Notes: a model not told the origin generated them from the sequence alone. A DNA stretch of 39,727 bases from a virus (IMGVR_UViG_2778261268_000004); one strand, 5' to 3'; counted from the first letter of the stretch, positions 6,615-36,296 are shown. Translations and numbers: made by a program.

Positions 6615-7199
6615 TTATTGTTTGTTTTTTTCGTTCTGGCTGATGACAAATTCAATGTAACTTTCGATCTTTGCCTTCTCTGTTTCGGGTAACAATGCGT
6701 AGCGCGAGCGGTCATAGTTGATAGTCGCAGGGTCGTGCGGGTGAATCAGTAATTCATAGCCGTGACGCCCGAATGCGGATGCAACATTCTCCAGGGTGGA
6801 AATGGAAACGCTGACCTCATTGTTTAACAGGCGGCTGATTGTCACCTGGGCGACGCCGGATGCGCGGTGAAGTTTTCCCTGTGTTGAAAGGTCGCGGCTT
6901 TCGCTCATCCAGCGTTCCAGGTTGTGAGCCGCCAGCTGACCAATGTCGCTTGGGCCGACAGGCTGAAAACCTTCCTGAGAAAGCGAGCGATCGATATCAA
7001 GCCAGTTACGGGGTTTATTGGCGGCAGCTTCAATTTTTCGCGCAACCTGGTCGCCGATAACCTTCTTGCCAAGAGCCCAGCGGTTTACCAGATTTGCCTG
7101 AGTTCCAAGTTTTTCTGCCATCCGCGTCTGAACACCATTGAATTCACGGTCGATCAAGTCGTTGAGATTTTGCCTGCGGACGTCCTGGATACTTTTCAT
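6615..7199 (-). CDS. CI-like prophage repressor with two HTH (XRE-type) domains, no S24 peptidase domain
   Basis: Two HTH-like segments (QTRMAEKLGTQANLVNRW and GVAQVTISRLLNNEVSVS); divergent from a Cro-like gene; flanked by palindromic operators; terminator downstream. Confidence 0.7.
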   Translation of the reverse strand: MKSIQDVRRQNLNDLIDREFNGVQTRMAEKLGTQANLVNRWALGKKVIGDQVARKIEAAANKPRNWLDIDRSLSQEGFQPVGPSDIGQLAAHNLERWMSESRDLSTQGKLHRASGVAQVTISRLLNNEVSVSISTLENVASAFGRHGYELLIHPHDPATINYDRSRYALLPETEKAKIESYIEFVISQNEKNKQ

Positions 7200-7353: not shown

Positions 7354-7584
7354 ATGAGCGATAACGGACATTTCGATTTCAAAAAGCACTGGCTTGCACT
7401 TACTCCGGATGAGCGTGAAGCCTTCGCACAGGAAGCCGGAACGACGAGTCACTATATCCAGACTCACTTAACAGGTAAGCGCAAAATGCCAGGTAAGGTA
7501 TTGATGAATGGGCTTTTTAAAGCCTGTAAAACAAGACAATGGCTGCGCTCAAAAGCAGAACTGGCATACTTCTTCTACTCATGA
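7354..7584 (+). CDS. Cro/YdaS-like small DNA-binding regulator
   Basis: 76-aa protein divergent from the repressor; HTH-like QEAGTTSHYIQTHLTGKRKM; terminator follows. Confidence 0.7.
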   Translation: MSDNGHFDFKKHWLALTPDEREAFAQEAGTTSHYIQTHLTGKRKMPGKVLMNGLFKACKTRQWLRSKAELAYFFYS

Positions 7585-14631: not shown

Positions 14632-14830
14632 AATCTCACCTTAAAAAAAATGCCCGGCGAACCAGGCGAACTGGAAGCAATGAGTTATGCCTTCCGTGGC
14701 TGTACTGGTTTACAGCATGAAGTCATCGCAATGGCGTCCTGCTGTAAAAAGGGCGGTGGTAGTCCTTCAAGGGAAACCATCACCGCCAAGCCTCTGGAAC
14801 TTCTGGCATCACGGTCCTTAGGCGTGATTC

Positions 14831-14907
14831 TGGCGTGGCATGCAGGATTCGAACCTGCGACCAACCGCTTAGAAGGCGGTTGCTCTGTCCAACTGAGCTA
14901 ATGCCAC
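14831..14907 (-). tRNA. tRNA-Arg (anticodon UCU)
   Basis: Cloverleaf folds by hand: acceptor GTGGCAT/ATGCCAC, D-stem GCTC/GAGC, anticodon stem ACCGC/GCGGT with loop CTTCTAA, T-arm GCAGG-TTCGAAT-CCTGC, discriminator G, encoded CCA. Confidence 0.85.
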
Positions 14908-15229: not shown

Positions 15230-15244
15230 TTACCTGAAAGGTAA
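15230..15244. promoter_or_regulatory. Operator-like palindrome TTACC-tgaaa-GGTAA upstream of the virion module
   Basis: Perfect half-sites; ATGTGGTT at 15289-15296 and GGTAAT at 15302-15307 nearby. Confidence 0.5.
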
Positions 15245-28820: not shown

Positions 28821-31295
28821 ATGAGACAGGAATGTATACAAGCGGTCCAGCAGGTGGCGCAGCGCGCGTTAACGGCGCGAGAAATACAGAACATTGAAGA
28901 CCGCATTTATCGAAATATGCGCTCCATTGCTCGTGATGACCCGATGTCGTGGCGACAACTTTCCGAATCAGAACGGTTGTATCGTGCAGCACAATTGGCA
29001 TCTGAAGAATTACAGCGAGAAGCGGCATTAAAGAAACGTCGTGTGGCCCTCGCTATAGCCGCACGTCAGAGATTGGATAAATTTATCAATAGCTATCAAG
29101 GGGCTGATGGGAAACTTGGCGCTCTTAACCGTACTATTGCTTTTAATGCAGACGGTAAATCGAATTTCCTCTCTGTTGAATCCAGAACAAAAGCCACTCG
29201 TGATTATGCATTGAGTCAATTGCAGGAGGCATTTGAAGCAGTTGATCCTCGCTTTTTTGGCCTGTTTGAAGATGAAGCGGGCGTGCGTGACCTGGTATAT
29301 GAAATGCGAGGGCAAAATACTGGCAATGCTAAAGCAAGAAAAGGTGCTAAGGCGTGGAGAGAAGTGACAGATCTACTTCGCCGCCGGTTTAATGATGCTG
29401 GTGGGGACATTGGCTATCTCGAAAACTGGGGGATCCCTCAACATCATTCTATGGAAAAGGTTGGGGCGGTATCAAAGGATAAGTGGGTTAGCGATGTTAT
29501 AGGTAAGCTGGATCGCAAATATTATACCCGAGCCGATGGACAACTGATGAACGATGCCGAGTTGTCTGCATTTCTTGGAGAGGCTTATAACACGATCGCT
29601 ACTGGTGGGCTGAATAAGCTTACTGATACCGGAATGCGAATTTCCGGCGCACGTGCTAACCGTGGTAATGCATCACGACAGATACATTTCAAAGATGCAG
29701 ATTCCTATCTCCAATATCAACAACTTTATGGCGATCGCTCTCTATGGGAAATCATGGTCGGTCACCTGGAAGGTATCAGTAAAGATATTGCTCTGGTGGA
29801 AACATATGGTCCAAACCCCGATCATGTTTTCCGCTCTCTTCTTGATCAGGTGAAGGCAGAAACGGCAACAGCTAACCCGAGTAAAACCGGTAAAGTCGAG
29901 CGGCTGGCGAACAACACAGAGAATCTGTACAACTTTATTTCCGGAAAGACACAGCCTGTAGCGAATCCGCACATCGCGCGATGGTCTGACAATATCCGCA
30001 ACTGGCTGGTTGCCAGCAGACTCGGTTCCGCGTTGCTGTCATCGTTCTCTGATCTTGGGACCATGTATCTGTCTGCGAAGGTGACCAACCTTCCAATGAA
30101 CCAGTTATTCCGCAACCAGCTTGAAGCTATGGACCCAACGAACCGTACAGAACTTGCGCGGGCGCGCCGCGCTGGTCTGGCGATGGAATCTCTACTTGGC
30201 AGCGTTAACCGCTGGGCGATGGATAATATGGGGCCGTCAGTGTCTCGTTGGGCGGCAACGGCGGTAATGCGTGCCAGTGGGCTTACAGCATGGTCAGATG
30301 CGCACAAGCGCGCCTATGGCGTAACCATGATGGGAAGCCTGGGAGAAGTAGTGTCACGGACACCAGACCTTCGTAGCCTCGATGATTCTGATTTTCGCAT
30401 CCTGAAAAGCAAAGGGATTACTGACACAGACTGGAGCGTATGGAAGCTGGCGCAACAGGAGGACTGGGGGAACGGCAATAATACGATGCTGACACCGGAA
30501 AGCATTATGCGTATCCCTGATTCAGCAGTTAAACATCTTGGTGAGCCTGAACGCGTGAAATTTGAGGCAATGCGTAAACTGCTCGGTGCCGTAACTGAAG
30601 AAGTTGATATGGCTGTTATTACACCTGGAGCACGTGAGCAGCTGATAACCGGTTCTGGTATTCAGCGTGGAACATGGAAAGGTGAATTAACGAGAAGTGT
30701 TTTCCTGTTTAAATCGTTCCCTATCTCGGTTGTTATGCGTCACTGGTCACGCGCTATGGGTATGCCGTCTGCTGGTGGTCGTGCGGCATATATTGCGACG
30801 TTTATTGTCAGTACGACCATTCTTGGCGCTTTGTCGCAGCAACTTAACGACCTTGCGTCTGGTCGTAATCCTCGAGAGATGACAGGAGAAGATGCCGCAA
30901 AATTCTGGCTTGGTGCTCTACTGAAAGGTGGTGGTCTTGGCCTTTACGGTGACTTTTTATTGTCAGATCACACTAGGTACGGAAGCGGCGCGCTGGCGTC
31001 GATGCTTGGCCCGGTAGCTGGTCTGGTTGATGACGTAGTGAAGATTGCTCAGGGCATACCGTTAAATGCTGTGGAAGGGAAGAGTGAGCAGACTGGTGGT
31101 GATCTGGTGAAGCTGGGGAAAGGTTTGATGCCAGGTGCGAATCTCTGGTACTTAAAGGCGGCTCTCGATCATATGATCTTTAACCAGATGCAGGAGTATT
31201 TTTCACCAGGCTATTTGCGTAAAATGGAGCAACGTTCGAAGAAAGAGTTTAATCAGACATACTGGTGGCGACCTCAGGATGTCACTCCGCAATAA
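28821..31295 (+). CDS. Internal virion / ejection protein, gp16-like
   Basis: 824 aa, last large gene of the core block. Confidence 0.6.
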   Translation: MRQECIQAVQQVAQRALTAREIQNIEDRIYRNMRSIARDDPMSWRQLSESERLYRAAQLASEELQREAALKKRRVALAIAARQRLDKFINSYQGADGKLGALNRTIAFNADGKSNFLSVESRTKATRDYALSQLQEAFEAVDPRFFGLFEDEAGVRDLVYEMRGQNTGNAKARKGAKAWREVTDLLRRRFNDAGGDIGYLENWGIPQHHSMEKVGAVSKDKWVSDVIGKLDRKYYTRADGQLMNDAELSAFLGEAYNTIATGGLNKLTDTGMRISGARANRGNASRQIHFKDADSYLQYQQLYGDRSLWEIMVGHLEGISKDIALVETYGPNPDHVFRSLLDQVKAETATANPSKTGKVERLANNTENLYNFISGKTQPVANPHIARWSDNIRNWLVASRLGSALLSSFSDLGTMYLSAKVTNLPMNQLFRNQLEAMDPTNRTELARARRAGLAMESLLGSVNRWAMDNMGPSVSRWAATAVMRASGLTAWSDAHKRAYGVTMMGSLGEVVSRTPDLRSLDDSDFRILKSKGITDTDWSVWKLAQQEDWGNGNNTMLTPESIMRIPDSAVKHLGEPERVKFEAMRKLLGAVTEEVDMAVITPGAREQLITGSGIQRGTWKGELTRSVFLFKSFPISVVMRHWSRAMGMPSAGGRAAYIATFIVSTTILGALSQQLNDLASGRNPREMTGEDAAKFWLGALLKGGGLGLYGDFLLSDHTRYGSGALASMLGPVAGLVDDVVKIAQGIPLNAVEGKSEQTGGDLVKLGKGLMPGANLWYLKAALDHMIFNQMQEYFSPGYLRKMEQRSKKEFNQTYWWRPQDVTPQ

Positions 31296-31304
31296 GGATG
31301 AGAA

Positions 31305-31406
31305 ATGATTGCTTTTATTCTTGTTGTGTTTGCGCTTGTTGCACTTGGCGTTATGAACCGTAATGTATCATTGACGATGGCGAATTTGCTGTTGCAGTTA
31401 TTTTGA
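31305..31406 (+). CDS. Small hydrophobic peptide (33 aa)
   Basis: AAGGATGAG RBS; MIAFILVVFALVALGV hydrophobic N-terminus; not in ORF track (<60 aa). Confidence 0.3.
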   Translation: MIAFILVVFALVALGVMNRNVSLTMANLLLQLF

Positions 31407-31451
31407 TATTATCTGGTGTAGCAGGGTACATAGGCTTGTCATAACGTGAGC

Positions 31452-31463
31452 GTGACATGTCAC
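31452..31463. repeat. Perfect 12-bp palindrome GTGACATGTCAC (copy 3)
   Basis: Exact string; immediately upstream of terminator hairpin 31464-31482. Confidence 0.9.
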
Positions 31464-31488
31464 AGGCCGCTTTCGCGGCCTTGTTTTT
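31464..31488 (+). terminator. Rho-independent terminator ending the internal-virion-protein operon
   Basis: AGGCCGC-tttc-GCGGCCT followed by TGTTTTT. Confidence 0.75.
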
Positions 31489-31648
31489 AACGAATACCAC
31501 CGCCGCCAGGGCGGGAATCCGCAGAACGCCCACCGCAGCGGGAGCCGTCAGCGGCAGTATCGCTGTCGTGCTGACAACGACCGGCAAAGGCCTGAGTTGA
31601 AGCTACCAGAGACAACAAAACGAACAGTGCAGCAAATGCTTTTTTCAT
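31487..31648 (-). CDS. Small secreted peptide (signal peptide plus about 31-aa Gly/Arg-rich mature part with 2 Cys)
   Basis: MKKAFAALFVLLSLVASTQAFA signal-like N-terminus; weak RBS. Confidence 0.35.
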   Translation of the reverse strand: MKKAFAALFVLLSLVASTQAFAGRCQHDSDTAADGSRCGGRSADSRPGGGGIR

Positions 31649-31720
31649 TGTGAAATTTCCATCTATAAGCCACCTCAATGTGGCGTCAATGAGTGTAGCA
31701 CTGACTTTTGTTTCGTCCAC

Positions 31721-31746
31721 AAAAAAGCCCGCGCTGCGGGCTTCTA
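31721..31746 (-). terminator. Rho-independent terminator after the unknown 210-aa gene
   Basis: GAAGCCCGC-agc-GCGGGCTTC followed by TTTTTT on the minus strand. Confidence 0.75.
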
Positions 31747-32379
31747 TTAATGCAGTTTATCTTTGCTTATAACCAGTAGTCTGTGGGTATGCACATCTTT
31801 ATCACTGCCCCAACAGAAATCAGCCCACTGGCTATAGAAATCATCCCATGATGTCATGAAGCTAAGAGGTCTATCTTCTTCAGAGCCATCTGAAACGTAT
31901 ACATTATATCCCGGGGTGTTTATAGCCCAAGAAATCATTCTTTCCCAGAATCTTCTCCCATCGATTGTTTGTTGCTCATCAGATACAACAATCGCATATT
32001 GCTCTAGGAAGAACTGAAAAAAAATCTGAGGCAAACCATGAACAGCACGGTCATGAATAACATTAGGCGTACGCCATACCATGATCTGCGTACATGTTCT
32101 TTTGGCTTCGACGATATCTTCCCGAAAGATTAACTTAACCGCATACACCGTTTCTGGAGTATCGCTGGTAGTAATCATTCTGTAATGATCGCCATTACAA
32201 GATTTTACAAGGCGATAACCATAAGGTGTTGTGAATCCCGGAAGAACGAAATCAACCACACCTTTCGCTAAGTAGCTTTCGGTGTGACTAGTGTTCTTCT
32301 CAGACATGTTCAGTTTTCTATCGAAATCTGCTTCTGGGATAATGTATGGCATCGCTTTTCTTGTTGTATTTGTTCTCAT
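31747..32379 (-). CDS. Unknown 210-aa accessory protein (moron)
   Basis: Strong GGGAGGA RBS 5 nt from ATG; own terminator (31721-31746); TTACC-N5-GGTAA operator upstream; no recognisable motif. Confidence 0.6.
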   Translation of the reverse strand: MRTNTTRKAMPYIIPEADFDRKLNMSEKNTSHTESYLAKGVVDFVLPGFTTPYGYRLVKSCNGDHYRMITTSDTPETVYAVKLIFREDIVEAKRTCTQIMVWRTPNVIHDRAVHGLPQIFFQFFLEQYAIVVSDEQQTIDGRRFWERMISWAINTPGYNVYVSDGSEEDRPLSFMTSWDDFYSQWADFCWGSDKDVHTHRLLVISKDKLH

Positions 32380-32438
32380 TTCGTCCTCCCATGTTTGGCT
32401 ACAGGACGCGTTTTGAAGGGAAGATTAAAAATGCTTTC

Positions 32439-32453
32439 TTACCCTTGAGGTAA
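32439..32453. promoter_or_regulatory. Operator-like palindrome TTACC-cttga-GGTAA upstream of the unknown 210-aa gene
   Basis: Perfect half-sites about 60 bp upstream of ATG 32379 (minus strand). Confidence 0.5.
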
Positions 32454-32525
32454 TAGTACGCTATTCACCCCCAGTCTGCAATCTGTACAGAATTATTTAA
32501 AGGCACATCCCTGTGCCGCCGCCCG

Positions 32526-33236
32526 TCAGAAGAACCCTGCCTTGTCGTTGATGTACTCCGCGTGCGTCTGGATATCACGCAGGCATTTGCTCACACCGAC
32601 GATGTAGCAGAACATGGTGGTCAGTTCCGCCGCCGCGCCCGATACGTCGTGCCCGTCTTCCTGTAACTGGTTTAGCAGATTCATCAGCAGTGAGCTCTCC
32701 GTCAGGCCGAGAACACCAGACGGCGAATGAATCAGGCTACGGTAGCCTGGCTTCAGTGGGGCACTGTAGGTTTTGTTCTCTATCTTCATTGCCTGCATCA
32801 CTGCTGATGCTGTGGCGTTGGCTACCTGGTCGGCAACCATCTTTATGCGTTCTTCCTGCGGGAGCGAGTTTTTAATGTAACTTCCGGTGCGGCGGATCTG
32901 AGGAAGAACCTCACCTGTAACCCATTTACGAAAGCGGTAGGGGATAGTGCCTGGTGTCACCGCATCGCGGCAGCGGAGGATCAGTGTGTAGAGGCCTGAC
33001 TCGGAGATGATGTTGATCTCTTTTACTCGGCTATCAAAAATTGCACGATGTTCATGCCCTATGTTGAACATAGACCTTTCATCATCATCCAGTTTTTCAA
33101 GTGATTGGGTGACGTTTTGGATACGCAGCGCACTACAAACGTCTTGGGCTACAAACCATGGTTGGCCATCGATAATGATGGAACGGATAGGGTTAACAGA
33201 TTCAAATTTGAAGATGGCAGTTTGAGCATTAGCCAT
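32526..33236 (-). CDS. Bro-N domain antirepressor-like protein
   Basis: N-terminal FKFESVNPIRSIIIDGQPWFVAQDVCSAL...ESGLYTLILR Bro-N pattern; GGAGAT RBS. Confidence 0.75.
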   Translation of the reverse strand: MANAQTAIFKFESVNPIRSIIIDGQPWFVAQDVCSALRIQNVTQSLEKLDDDERSMFNIGHEHRAIFDSRVKEINIISESGLYTLILRCRDAVTPGTIPYRFRKWVTGEVLPQIRRTGSYIKNSLPQEERIKMVADQVANATASAVMQAMKIENKTYSAPLKPGYRSLIHSPSGVLGLTESSLLMNLLNQLQEDGHDVSGAAAELTTMFCYIVGVSKCLRDIQTHAEYINDKAGFF

Positions 33237-33253
33237 GGTGGTTATCTCCACTT

Positions 33254-33268
33254 AGTGATTTTAATCAC
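33254..33268. promoter_or_regulatory. Palindrome GTGATT-TTA-ATCAC immediately upstream of the Bro-N gene RBS
   Basis: Inverted repeat located -15 to -35 from ATG 33236 on the minus strand. Confidence 0.35.
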
Positions 33269-33391
33269 CACCGCAACGCCAATTACTGGTGGTGAACTGG
33301 ACAAGGTTGGCGTACCGGCCTAAGTGGTACCGGCGTCCTTTCGGACCCCTGCCCAGCCCACCATAATTCGGATATGGCTGTGCTTAACGCA

Positions 33392-33414
33392 TAAAAAAAC
33401 CACGTCTGGCGTGG
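33392..33414 (-). terminator. Rho-independent terminator inside the antirepressor intergenic region
   Basis: CCACG-ccaga-CGTGG followed by TTTTTTT on the minus strand. Confidence 0.65.
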
Positions 33415-33505
33415 TATGCGCCACTTAGTAACTCGGGACGCCAATCCCGGCACTGGATTTTGCCAGTGCCCGATTACTATGGCACAAGAGGAGTGCGATG
33501 TAAAT

Positions 33506-33520
33506 TTACCGCAAAGGTAA
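33506..33520. promoter_or_regulatory. Operator-like palindrome TTACC-gcaaa-GGTAA
   Basis: Perfect half-sites in the antirepressor intergenic region. Confidence 0.45.
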
Positions 33521-33551
33521 ATATAAGCACTCATCTTGGTAATTTCAAATC

Positions 33552-33809
33552 TTATCTGGTTTGTTTTCGTAATTGTTCGGCACAATAGTCGAGATGTGTT
33601 TGCAGATCCCGCATAGACATCTGTGAGCTGGTGACGTAGTTAATCAGTGCAGTCAGTTCGGCAAGTGGGCCATCGACATTAAATCCATCCTTATCGAGAT
33701 CCCGGAGTAATTTCATCAAGTGCGATCCCTCCACCAGTGATCTGACGCCTCCCGGCGTGTGAATCCTTTCGGTAAATCCGTCTTCCAGTGGATAGTGATA
33801 CTGCTGCAT
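33552..33809 (-). CDS. Small protein paralogous to the C-terminal domain of the Bro-N protein
   Basis: RSLVEGSHLMKLLRDLDKDGFNVDGPLAELTALINYVTSSQMSMRDLQTHLDYC aligns with the C-terminus of the 32526-33236 product; GGAGAAG RBS. Confidence 0.55.
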   Translation of the reverse strand: MQQYHYPLEDGFTERIHTPGGVRSLVEGSHLMKLLRDLDKDGFNVDGPLAELTALINYVTSSQMSMRDLQTHLDYCAEQLRKQTR

Positions 33810-33885
33810 CTTATCTTCTCCATGCAATAACTGTATATTTATACAGTATCAAATAATTTGTTTGCTATCCAGCACGTTTTGTAAA

Positions 33886-33900
33886 TTACCCGAAAGGTAA
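33886..33900. promoter_or_regulatory. Operator-like palindrome TTACC-cgaaa-GGTAA
   Basis: Perfect half-sites in the divergent region between the antirepressor-like gene and the tailspike; ATGTGGTT at 33933-33940 and GGTAAT at 33946-33951. Confidence 0.5.
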
Positions 33901-34004
33901 TATCTATTCGTATTTACAGTCTTTCTATCCATATGTGGTTTTTCAGGTAATAGAATAACCAGATATGCGGCGCAACGGGTGCTGCGACTATCTGGAGATT
34001 TAAC

Positions 34005-36296
34005 ATGACGGTCTCAACCGAAGTTGACCACAACGAATACACAGGCAATGGCGTTACGACATCGTTTCCGTATACCTTCCGCATTTTCAAAAAATCCGAC
34101 CTGGTTGTTCAGGTGGTTGACCTTGATGAAAATATCGCTGTGCTGGCTCTTGATACTGATTACACTGTCACTGGGGCTGGTGGATACAACGGTGGCAATG
34201 TAATTTTGTCGAAGGCATTGGCCAGCGGTCATCATATTTCTATATCTCGAGAGCTACCAGTTACGCAGGAAACCGATCTGCGCAATCAAGGTAAGTTCTT
34301 TGCTGAAGTGCATGAGGATGCTTTTGATAAGCTCACTATGCTTATACAGCGGGCATATAGCGTTTTTCGCTTAGCTCTGCGTAAACCATCAAGCATTGCG
34401 AACTGGTACGACGCGCTGAACAACTGCATCCGCAATTTGCGCGATCCCTGCAACCCGCAGGATGCCGCCACCAAAAATTATGTCGATACGCTCGCAAACA
34501 GCAACTTAATCCGCACGCTGCGAGTTCCAGAAGTTATTATATCCTTGCCTGATGCTGAAACCAGAGCTAATAAGATGGTTGCATTTGATAGTATCGGCAA
34601 TCCTTTAGTGGTTTTGCCTCCTTCAGGTTCTGCTTCTGATGTTCTTATTCAGTTGGCTGCCTCAGATGGAGCAAAATTATCGTTAAGTCAAGTAGCCACC
34701 GCATATGGCCTTGATTTCTCGTTAGGCGGTGTATGGCGGGAGGGGGCGTTATCTAATGTTGATAACTGGTGGTGGTATAATAATAAAATCTACACTGGTG
34801 GTAGTGGCACTCTTCCGTCATCTCCTGCTTTGCCATGGTACGAAGTGACGGTAGCAGATTATATTTCTGTTGCTCAATTTTTCCCCATTACTGGTGATCC
34901 AGCGGCAGATAACTCAGCTAGCTTTAATGCTGCTGCAGCAGTTGCTTTATCGGCAGGAAAGAGGCTGTTTGTCCCTGCAGGAACTTACTATGTTAAGTCA
35001 CCAGTTGATTTAACAATAGGCACTGTTGACCTATTCGGGGATGGCGTTGAGAAGTCATTCATTATTGCGGGGAGTGGGTTCACTGGAGAGGCAGTTGTCA
35101 ACATGTACTACGAAACTGACTCTATAAGACGTAGCACATCTATCTATCACGTTACAGTTGATGGGAACAACATCGCCAACTATCCTTGCCGAATTCAATA
35201 TGTTCACCTAGGAAGAACCCATAATTGTCGTTTCATCAATGGCGCGGTGGCGAACTTATATACTATAAACGACTGGCTTAATACCTATGATTGCTGTTCT
35301 TTTGTTCCTGCGCCAAATCGCGGAGTTCACCTTGCTGGGGCTAACAACCGCGTAACGTTCAATAACTGTGGATTTGCATCAAATAAGGTCGGTGAATATG
35401 CCTTTTATGCTTCTGGTACTTCCCCTATTGAAGGTTTAAGCTTAATTGGATGTGACCTTGAGTTCGGCATTGGGCATGGCATGTACTTAAATACCCGAGT
35501 GACCAATATTGTTGGCGGGTACTATGGCGAAGCGATACAAGGCGATATTTTTACGGTTCCAGATGGAGTAGTAAAAATAAGCGGTGTAAATGCTTTTGTA
35601 GGATATTACAATGAGGGAGGAAGGTTTGTTGTTCTTGACAATGATGCTGTAGTTAAGGTTGATAGTTGCTGGATTGCAGATCAGGGCAACTTTAAACTTT
35701 CATTACTTGCATCAAGCGCTAACAACATGGCTCATGCTGTATTTACTAAATGTTATATTGGTGCAACTGTGTCTGGCCCACAAGTTATGGAAGGAGATTG
35801 TTTAGGCAAGATCAATATGAGGACGTTTGCAGAAAGCAGGGCAATCCTTTATACAATGAACAATACTGGTAATACAGTAACCAGAAGCAGATACAACTCA
35901 ATAGGAGCAAAAATAACCATTAATACCGTAACGAGCCCTAGTTCTAACAAGCTATCACTTAATACTAAGATAAAAGACAGAGGGTGGAAGGTTAACGACC
36001 GGGTGTACTTAATTGTTACTTATGAGAGTAATGTTGATATAAATATTTATTTAAGCAGTTCGATATATGCTGCATCGGATGCAACGCTATTTGGAACTTT
36101 ACCATCAACAAATGGTTCTTTATCTACGTGTTATATTGCTAATAATATTATTCCGGAAAATACATCTGAGATATTCGAGTTTTATGTAAATGGCGCTGGT
36201 GTTGGCGATTACTTTGCTATTCAGGATGTTACTCTTACAGACAGGTCATTCACTTTCAGTGGAACAACTATGACCACTTTTGCTAAGGCTGAATAA
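34005..36296 (+). CDS. Tail fibre/tailspike: T7 gp17-like N-terminal anchor plus beta-helix-like C-terminal domain (probable depolymerase)
   Basis: N-terminal pattern ending NKNYVDTL as in T7-type fibres; C-terminal repetitive Asn/Gly-rich region suggestive of a right-handed beta-helix. Confidence 0.85.
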   Translation: MTVSTEVDHNEYTGNGVTTSFPYTFRIFKKSDLVVQVVDLDENIAVLALDTDYTVTGAGGYNGGNVILSKALASGHHISISRELPVTQETDLRNQGKFFAEVHEDAFDKLTMLIQRAYSVFRLALRKPSSIANWYDALNNCIRNLRDPCNPQDAATKNYVDTLANSNLIRTLRVPEVIISLPDAETRANKMVAFDSIGNPLVVLPPSGSASDVLIQLAASDGAKLSLSQVATAYGLDFSLGGVWREGALSNVDNWWWYNNKIYTGGSGTLPSSPALPWYEVTVADYISVAQFFPITGDPAADNSASFNAAAAVALSAGKRLFVPAGTYYVKSPVDLTIGTVDLFGDGVEKSFIIAGSGFTGEAVVNMYYETDSIRRSTSIYHVTVDGNNIANYPCRIQYVHLGRTHNCRFINGAVANLYTINDWLNTYDCCSFVPAPNRGVHLAGANNRVTFNNCGFASNKVGEYAFYASGTSPIEGLSLIGCDLEFGIGHGMYLNTRVTNIVGGYYGEAIQGDIFTVPDGVVKISGVNAFVGYYNEGGRFVVLDNDAVVKVDSCWIADQGNFKLSLLASSANNMAHAVFTKCYIGATVSGPQVMEGDCLGKINMRTFAESRAILYTMNNTGNTVTRSRYNSIGAKITINTVTSPSSNKLSLNTKIKDRGWKVNDRVYLIVTYESNVDINIYLSSSIYAASDATLFGTLPSTNGSLSTCYIANNIIPENTSEIFEFYVNGAGVGDYFAIQDVTLTDRSFTFSGTTMTTFAKAE

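Follow-up and report, generated by a model that had tools for sequence, protein, structure and literature searches.

A putative repressor-gated cargo slot behind the antirepressor genes of a phiV10-type prophage, and its 210-residue occupant of predicted GNAT-like fold

Introduction

What does a short minus-strand block of genes, lying between the virion genes and the tailspike gene of a prophage, do for the phage, and what would the one nameless 210-residue protein in its midst add? The block lies at about 31305-33900 in a 39,727-nt stretch of virus DNA (IMGVR_UViG_2778261268_000004); "the window" means that whole stretch, and coordinates refer to it unless another contig is named. Judged by its sequence, the window is a phiV10/epsilon15-type (Uetakevirus-like) Escherichia coli prophage, and the region 31200-34100 is 92-98% identical, piecewise, to phiV10, TL-2011b, ZX5 and related phages. 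The original prediction had likened the position of the block to that of the immI/sieA accessory region of phage P22 and had read the block as a self-contained moron, with the 210-residue protein as a candidate for superinfection exclusion or anti-phage defence.

We find the locus to be mostly accounted for by known modules; its upstream two-thirds is an antirepressor under C4/IsrK control to which LexA control has been added. Our explanation of the whole is that of an antirepressor (immI, induction-switch) module with a swappable cargo slot at its 3' end, filled here by a GNAT-like enzyme of the lytic phase, and taken together it has, in our judgement, an even chance of being right. In the order of transcription, the minus-strand genes are an open reading frame (ORF) of 85/91 residues (orf85), the BRO-N gene ant, the 210-residue ORF and a gene for a 53-residue protein with a signal peptide. 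Two groups of elements were absent from the first reading: the Rfam matches to C4, isrK and c4-a1b1 (33285-33482) and a LexA box (33831-33846). The flanking genes are these.

28821-31295, plus strand: virion protein gene, 824 residues (upstream flank)
34005-36296, plus strand: tail fibre/tailspike gene, pectate-lyase-like (downstream flank)

The P22-like position therefore stands as far as placement goes, between virion/ejection-like genes and the tailspike, but the module, with its C4/IsrK RNAs, is not of the P22 type.

Results

The cargo slot and the phage-wide operator

The 210-residue ORF is present on the minus strand at 31747-32379, and the strong ribosome-binding site (RBS) claimed for it is there, 4 nt before the ATG. 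The gene and the elements around it are listed below.

32438..32481, minus strand: putative slot promoter/operator, with a -35-like TTGCAG (32481..32476), a -10-like TACTAT (32458..32453) and the operator ATTACCTCAAGGGTAAG (32454..32438)
32453..32439, minus strand: operator TTACCTCAAGGGTAA, in front of the 210-residue gene
31747..32379, minus strand: cargo gene for a soluble 210-residue protein, PHROG 1349, predicted GNAT-like fold; RBS GGGAGGA at 32390..32384
31722..31745, minus strand: intrinsic terminator of the slot, a 10-bp GC-rich stem with a U-run (-17 kcal/mol, z = -2.79)

The gene-neighbourhood comparison across prophages revealed conserved flanks around interchangeable cargo. The upstream flank common to the variants comprises the ant 3' end, a hairpin, the promoter-like element and the operator, and homology to TL-2011b extends through ant as far as 32439 and begins again at 31742, in the terminator. 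Between these borders, S1-THA-01-A and TL-2011b carry a 59-residue ORF together with a 181-residue protein matching Pfam YafO_toxin (8.1e-06), ECSC054 carries ORFs of 55 and 147 residues, and phiV10 has an empty slot with no cargo. The geometry TTGnnn-17/18-TAnTAT plus TTACC-N5-GGTAA is kept before three different cargos, and in the alignment the sequences diverge right after GGTAA; in front of the 210-residue gene, the operator abuts or overlaps the -10-like hexamer. The original prediction had given this gene an operator region of its own and a dedicated terminator. An operator does lie upstream, but it is one of 13 phage-wide copies and forms part of a promoter/operator owned by the slot. 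The terminator also exists, but it is common to prophages with other cargos and so belongs to the slot, not to the 210-residue gene alone.

The cargo gene has a GC content of 40.8% against 49.4% for the window, and that it is a horizontally acquired cargo is supported. This cargo occurs in 93 of 5426 complete E. coli genomes, of which 446 match at least part of an 831-bp query spanning the slot flanks. Just upstream of the -35-like hexamer, at 32482-32491, there is also a perfect 10-bp palindrome, TCTGTACAGA, which is kept in the window and the YafO variants and not in ECSC054.

The wider setting of the slot operator is given by two further copies in the locus and by the repressor gene of the prophage.

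33506..33520, no strand assigned: operator TTACCTTTGCGGTAA, immediately next to the -10 of the IsrK/C4 promoter
33886..33900, no strand assigned: operator TTACCCGAAAGGTAA, between the divergent orf85 and tailspike genes
6615..7199, minus strand: prophage repressor of 193 residues with two helix-turn-helix (HTH) regions and no S24 peptidase domain (HTH_3, 1.2e-09)

With at most one mismatch allowed, the palindrome TTACC-N5-GGTAA occurs 13 times in the window, against 0.69 copies expected and a maximum of 3 in 100 shuffles; the fuller consensus is ATTACC-N5-GGTAAT (17 bp). Besides the two listed above, copies lie on both sides of the repressor gene, between it and a Cro-like gene at 7354-7584 (7255, 7303) and beyond its 3' end (6481, 6543). 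Others precede a DUF1064 gene (9586, 9648), the small terminase gene (12069, 12087), the cargo gene (32439) and the holin gene (36531), and one is at 15230. Most transcription units have a copy ahead of them. This pattern looks like the phage-wide operator network of a non-cleavable repressor of the phiV10/ZX5 type, which, from the positions of the sites, presumably binds the palindromes. The repressor is 99.5% identical to that of phiV10/ZX5, and its lack of an S24 domain would fit induction through antirepressors rather than self-cleavage. In the study of ZX5, overexpression of the repressor brought holin and endolysin transcripts down by more than 99.9%, while the operator was not defined and genome-wide control was left open (PMC9782041). 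In the literature searched, that paper included, we found no published description of the 13-site operator, and the map given here provides a concrete model for whole-genome control by the phiV10/ZX5 repressor.

This operator bears directly on the moron reading, in which the gene would be expressed from the prophage and would either protect the lysogen by superinfection exclusion or act as a single-protein abortive-infection toxin. Part of that reading holds, since the gene is a low-GC acquired cargo with a promoter-like element, an operator and a terminator. The location beside immI, which is also where sieA lies in P22 and sim in P1, speaks for it, as do the stand-alone nature of the gene with its own upstream gap in many prophages and the use of the same slot by a YafO-family toxin pair (TL-2011b, S1-THA-01-A) and by another small-plus-large pair (ECSC054). 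Superinfection exclusion is the part that lacks support: an operator of the phage's multi-copy set, placed against the -10-like hexamer, predicts that the gene is repressed in the lysogen, just where an exclusion moron would have to be expressed, and the globular, soluble model with no signal peptide or membrane helix is unlike SieA or Sim. The window holds no antitoxin-like partner for a toxin: no ORF of at least 25 residues lies wholly within the 146-bp gap upstream of the gene, the only ORF that reaches into this gap overlaps the ant 3' end, and none is coupled downstream. PADLOC 2.0 also gave no match for the proteins of the locus, and 61 family members yielded two matches at chance level (E 0.0015 and 0.006). 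We consider the moron reading, in either form, to be unlikely.

The 210-residue protein and its family

The protein matches PHROG 1349 ("unknown function") end to end (3e-113). Its close relatives, at 37-85% identity, come from Enterobacterales and are all annotated as "hypothetical" or "phage protein"; the wider family comprises 911 representatives at 50% identity (exhaustive profile search, E <= 1e-3), and the exact protein is listed in 7637 blocks of a public assembly collection. The earlier statement that it has no recognisable motif proved right, as searches of Pfam, NCBIfam, PADLOC and PDB sequences gave zero matches for the protein or the family profile, and a scan of 61 relatives found no Pfam family except in fused extra domains. 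A second homologue search with a deeper alignment added almost no new proteins and no names, and a literature search on the accessions, the PHROG identifier and GNAT combined with anti-phage functions found nothing relevant.

Structure comparison had been proposed as a check in the original prediction. An AlphaFold2 model of the protein reached a pLDDT of 90.5 and a pTM of 0.83, and Foldseek on BFVD matched it first to uncharacterised members of its own family (Agrobacterium jumbo phage Atu_ph07, E 1e-10) and next to NAT_SF/acyl-CoA N-acyltransferase proteins (E 6e-5 to 1e-3). The model has the GNAT alpha/beta fold, with a superposition over about 115 of the 210 residues. As modelled, the protein resembles only GNAT acyl-CoA N-acyltransferases and is GNAT-like in fold; membership of the GNAT enzyme superfamily, with binding of acyl-CoA or aminoacyl-tRNA and transfer of the group, is plausible on this model. 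Across the family, N29, Y79, W102, D134, W145 and W190 are kept, as is an element SDxxQTxxGxxFW, and the conserved Q137-T-x-x-G141-x-R-F-W lies at the junction of the strand 129-131 and the helix 139-153, a place like that of GNAT motif A. The canonical Q/RxxGxG/A motif, which in GNATs forms the pyrophosphate loop between beta4 and alpha3, is absent from the protein. An hhalign comparison with a RimI alignment gave 0.24%, but the positive control, RimI against the true GNAT Mom, failed too, so that this test is uninformative. By eye, neither a signal peptide nor a hydrophobic segment is apparent in the sequence and model, no dedicated predictor having been run.

A fold of this kind raises the question of whether the protein is a Mom-like or TacT-like GNAT directed at nucleic acid, which would modify DNA or tRNA of the phage or the host in lytic growth for restriction evasion or host shutdown. 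Along with the GNAT-like fold, the predicted lytic-phase expression would suit such an enzyme, and Mu Mom provides the precedent: crystallography has confirmed it as a GNAT, it draws on Gly-tRNA to modify adenine in double-stranded DNA, and its HTH-like insertion is essential (PMC13219725). One relative is fused to an SRA domain, a base-flipping DNA reader, although this fusion comes from one metagenomic contig. A possible hairpin sequestering the Shine-Dalgarno (SD) sequence recalls the translational control of mom, but shows a weak signal (combined p = 0.014, from sequences that are not independent). Mom is not detectably related in sequence (hhalign 0.2%), and its essential insertion has no evident counterpart in our model. 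Overall, a nucleic-acid-directed GNAT of this type seems to us quite unlikely.

Direct homology to Mom was also tried as an assignment and rejected: Mom belongs to phrog_1384, the hhalign probability was 0.2%, Mom was not among the top structural matches, and no HTH-like insertion is evident. We likewise do not claim the SD-sequestering hairpin (32384-32425), for which RNAalifold returned no consensus and shuffles were mostly non-significant, the combined p = 0.014 having been obtained on related sequences. In this hairpin, a pyrimidine-rich stretch (CGUCCU, UUGUCCU, GUACUCC and similar) 10-17 nt upstream pairs with the GGAGG SD in minimum-free-energy folds of 21 of 22 distinct 5' regions, and some apparent compensatory changes are seen among homologues (L003, L004, L038, L048, L060 and others).

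Relatives and their contexts

Homologues occur as single genes at accessory positions of unrelated backbones. In Serratia prophages the homologue lies between the tail chaperone and tape-measure genes, in Citrobacter P1-like elements between the baseplate genes and sit, and in the lambdoid phage LLS, where it is 84% identical, after the spanin genes. The LLS homologue keeps TACTAT-TTACC-N5-GGTAA (L083 42053-42067; L003 5914), and this is the sole perfect copy in the LLS genome, which suggests an orphan operator that moved together with the cassette. In both the Serratia prophages and LLS the homologue is co-oriented with late genes, suggesting a function in lytic growth. Distant members are found in phage Atu_ph07, in the 227-kb genome of Burkholderia phage BCSR5 and on IMG/VR contigs 142-235 kb long, all of jumbo size. 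Should these phages be virulent, there would be no lysogen for the protein to protect, which is a further point against the moron reading; it is because of the operator and these relatives that we favour a lytic-phase enzyme over a lysogen exclusion factor.

Tandem paralogues of 221 and 204/205 residues, 15 bp apart, were found on two metagenomic contigs (L020 851-2148; L021 4186-5480), and the second of them matches the family profile with an hhalign probability of 100%. Two fusions recall toxin-antitoxin systems and would favour a toxin role under the moron reading, but each such context is a single contig. In P0135, an SRA_ScoMcrA domain is joined to the family domain, and the gene lies where a toxin gene would, directly behind a PhdYeFM antitoxin gene with which it overlaps (L073 4823-6080). 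In P0153, an MqsA antitoxin N-domain (3.4e-20) is joined to the family domain (L072 1519-2262).

Among 84 dereplicated neighbour clusters, antirepressor and Arc types are the commonest (Arc 3, P22_AR_N 2, pRha 2, KilA-N, ORF6N, Bro-N). The association is seen in three backbones, an E. coli podovirus-type prophage, a Serratia siphovirus-type prophage and a Citrobacter P1-like element, and it would be accounted for if the protein were a non-catalytic GNAT-like scaffold in the lysis-lysogeny switch, binding or modulating, for example, Ant, the repressor or Arc-type regulators. Many homologues, however, have no antirepressor nearby (LLS, L005, L008, the jumbo-sized contigs), phiV10 and ZX5 switch normally without the 210-residue gene, and accessory genes gather in common hot spots anyway. 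The many conserved polar residues moreover suggest catalysis, and we regard a scaffold as improbable. The Citrobacter P1-like element ties the family to immI modules in a further way: directly after its 228-residue homologue comes a C4-like region (L009 6953-7194), 68% identical to 33463..33230 of the window, with small ORFs and a KilA-N protein following downstream.

The antirepressor module

Upstream of the slot in transcription, the locus carries the following features.

33520..33548, minus strand: sigma-70-like promoter TTGAAA-17-TATATT, candidate PisrK/Pc4 analogue (10/12 in the promoter scan)
33393..33482, minus strand: IsrK-like leader with candidate a1/b1 decoy targets of C4 (Rfam matches)
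33415..33399, minus strand: intrinsic terminator/attenuator inside the IsrK-like leader (terminator scan)
33285..33368, minus strand: C4 antisense RNA (Rfam RF01695, 66 bits against a gathering score of 45, full length 1-87)
33248..33282, minus strand: a2/b2-type C4 target sites in the ant leader, from complementarity to C4
32526..33236, minus strand: Ant, a BRO-N antirepressor (AnrP/Ant homologue) of 236 residues, counted from its ATG (33236); the ORF opens with a GTG (33251)
32502..32517, minus strand: hairpin GGCACA-GGGA-TGTGCC after the ant stop, kept in all slot variants and not flagged by the terminator scan
33829..33848, minus strand: LexA (SOS) box AACTGTATATTTATACAGTA
33552..33809, minus strand: orf85, a stand-alone homologue of the Ant C-terminal domain, with an alternative TTG start at 33827 (91 residues)

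By its elements, the module is an immI of the P1/Gifsy-1 type. The promoter TTGAAA-17-TATATT takes the position of PisrK in the Gifsy-1 isrK-orf45-anrP operon (PMC4825925). The leader that follows matches isrK (RF01394, 33469..33393) with 67.2 bits against a gathering score of 50, and c4-a1b1 (RF03163) with 44.3 bits, just under the gathering score of 46.7; it contains UUGGCGU at 33444..33438. In the ant leader, a second UUGGCGU (33282..33276) is the exact complement of C4 positions 56-62 (ACGCCAA), and CUAAGUGG (33255..33248), which overlaps the ant SD GGAG, is the exact complement of C4 positions 42-49 (CCACUUAG). Both of these C4 segments are single-stranded parts (loops) of C4. There is no icd-like ORF between C4 and ant, the gap to the ant start region being only 33 nt, and a 100-residue ORF at 33283-33585 was dismissed as spurious since it overlaps the C4/IsrK RNAs. 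The Rfam scan of the locus found no families beyond C4, isrK and c4-a1b1 (P22-type sar was not matched), and zero ORFs of the locus match Pfam Arc, as a P22-type arc would. The hairpin after the ant stop would be a weak terminator at best, because just 3 U come after it.

The two genes that had been called antirepressor-like do belong to antirepressor families. Ant matches Pfam Bro-N (3.6e-19) and phrog_130 Ant (1.4e-56), and the BRO-N Ant of the related phage ZX5 promotes the lytic cycle when overexpressed (PMC9782041). The product of orf85 matches phrog_450 (3.8e-48) and phrog_1760 "anti-repressor" (6.3e-07) and is about 41% identical to Ant C-termini (tblastn); related genomes annotate the same ORF at 85 residues. 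The LexA box in front of orf85 matches the consensus TACTGTATATATATACAGTA at 18 of 20 positions and overlaps a candidate promoter of this ORF, TTGATA-17-TATTGC. Its core, CTGT-N8-ACAG at 33831-33846, is one of three in the window and the sole copy with an all-A/T spacer, and the box is kept at -37/-38 from the orf85 ATG in 29 of 34 related loci, while no LexA box was found directly upstream of the 210-residue gene or its homologues. We propose that orf85 is a candidate SOS-controlled mini-antirepressor.

Elsewhere in the window, a second CTGT-N8-ACAG match, at 14700-14715, lies close to a tRNA-Arg(TCT) gene (14831-14907, minus strand); it is unlikely to be a LexA box because its spacer contains GC. 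In four related E. coli prophages (L012, L014, L019, L023), the stretch between the 53-residue gene and the virion genes holds additional antirepressor genes (P22_AR_N, AntA) and an Arc-like gene. All have the same C-terminal domain as Ant and orf85, a pattern that suggests modular N-domains attached to one shared C-domain for repressor binding.

Small flanking genes

The remaining features lie between the slot and the virion genes.

31487..31689, minus strand: gene for the 53-residue signal-peptide protein (ORF 31648..31487) with its own promoter-like TTGACG (31689..31684)-16-TATAGA (31667..31662), an independent unit
31464..31481, plus strand: hairpin and T-run ending the plus-strand virion operon (terminator scan)
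31305..31406, plus strand: 33-residue hydrophobic ORF at the end of the plus-strand virion operon (phrog_7892, residues 1-20 of the 46-position profile only)

The small secreted cysteine-containing peptide described earlier is confirmed as this 53-residue protein (WP_000708858.1; MKKAF...AFA|GRC...RCGGR...), which has a signal peptide and a mature part with two cysteines. It matches phrog_14503 "membrane associated protein" (7.5e-40) and also phrog_3117, and its gene accompanies every cargo-bearing variant. The small hydrophobic peptide is likewise real, but its 33-residue ORF is on the plus strand and falls outside the minus-strand locus; it resembles a shortened relative of the gp21 membrane peptide of phiV10, phiV10p21 being annotated as an integral membrane protein.

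Discussion

From these findings we propose a scheme for the locus. In a lysogen, the non-cleavable HTH repressor would bind the operator and hold both the cargo gene and the C4/ant promoter off. SOS, acting via LexA and orf85/Ant, or a fresh infection would lift this repression, and the 210-residue protein would then be made early in lytic growth; it is probably made only when the phage goes lytic. The protein would most likely act as an enzyme that attaches an acyl or aminoacyl moiety to a nucleic acid or a host target, helping the phage to counter defences or take over the host rather than protecting the lysogen. AcrVA5 and TacT-type toxins are precedents for a role of this kind.

Several points weigh against this scheme. 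The function of the 210-residue protein is proposed from its modelled fold and its context, and binding of the palindrome by the repressor is deduced from the positions of the copies. A single operator might repress poorly and so allow expression in the lysogen. The slot promoter has just 7 of 12 consensus positions and was missed by the promoter scan; we accept this promoter-like element mainly because it is conserved ahead of different cargos. The antirepressor and Arc neighbours in unrelated backbones are left unexplained by an enzyme for counter-defence. Finally, YafO as an alternative cargo and the SRA-fused relative behind Phd would fit abortive infection equally well, and since the slot also hosts YafO and the family has this Phd-linked member, a toxin or abortive-infection role is a serious rival.

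A broader picture can be drawn, which we offer tentatively and think rather unlikely to be right in full. PHROG 1349 may be a new, very divergent branch of GNAT-fold enzymes that temperate and jumbo-sized phages use at lytic onset and that chemically modify nucleic acid or a component of host immunity or translation, as Mom or AcrVA5 do. Such a protein would be toxic enough to need control by a repressor and, in some lineages, by an antitoxin, and Uetakeviruses would have it as one among several exchangeable weapons of the lytic phase, in a repressor-gated slot behind the antirepressor. The 210-residue protein is very common in public assemblies, yet it is unnamed, belongs to no Pfam family and matched no paper in the literature searched, and its predicted GNAT-like fold makes it directly testable. 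Because the slot is wired to the phage operator, its cargos, the YafO toxin included, may be lytic-phase weapons, and the locus suggests that prophage accessory slots are not all expressed in the lysogen.

Comparison with known systems places each part of the locus. Like P1/P7 immI (c4-icd-ant) and Gifsy-1 isrK-orf45-anrP, the module has C4 in the leader, with candidate a1/b1 sites upstream and, downstream at the RBS of the gene under control, a2/b2 sites, together with an attenuator terminator that could give a short IsrK-like RNA and an antirepressor downstream; as in P1, where the site is Op51, its promoter bears the phage's own operator. It differs from both in having no icd-like ORF, so that C4 would act on the ant RBS directly, in an Ant of the BRO-N type, in the extra LexA-boxed promoter and 85-residue Ant-C-domain gene upstream, and in the cargo slot after ant. 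With P22 immI/sieA it shares the place between virion (ejection-type) genes and the tailspike, an antirepressor and adjoining accessory genes, but it has no membrane SieA-like protein. LexA-controlled antirepressors (186 Tum, Gifsy GfoA/GfhA type) also go with a non-cleavable repressor, their small genes likewise lying outside the immunity region and behind a LexA box, whereas here the candidate gene is accompanied by an RNA-controlled BRO-N Ant as a second antirepressor within one transcription unit.

The 210-residue protein, for its part, would stand apart within the GNAT superfamily (NatD/Naa40, HAT1, AAC(2'), the TacT/AtaT toxins, Mu Mom), as it resembles no Pfam GNAT family in sequence or profile and has an extra two-helix stretch (107-127) in its model. 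The slot resembles the moron and cargo hot spots of prophages (lambda bor/lom, P2/P4 defence) in its conserved flanks, its interchangeable low-GC cargo, some of it toxins, and its own promoter-like element and terminator. It differs from them in that the promoter-like element bears a lytic operator, and the cargo looks repressor-controlled rather than lysogen-expressed.

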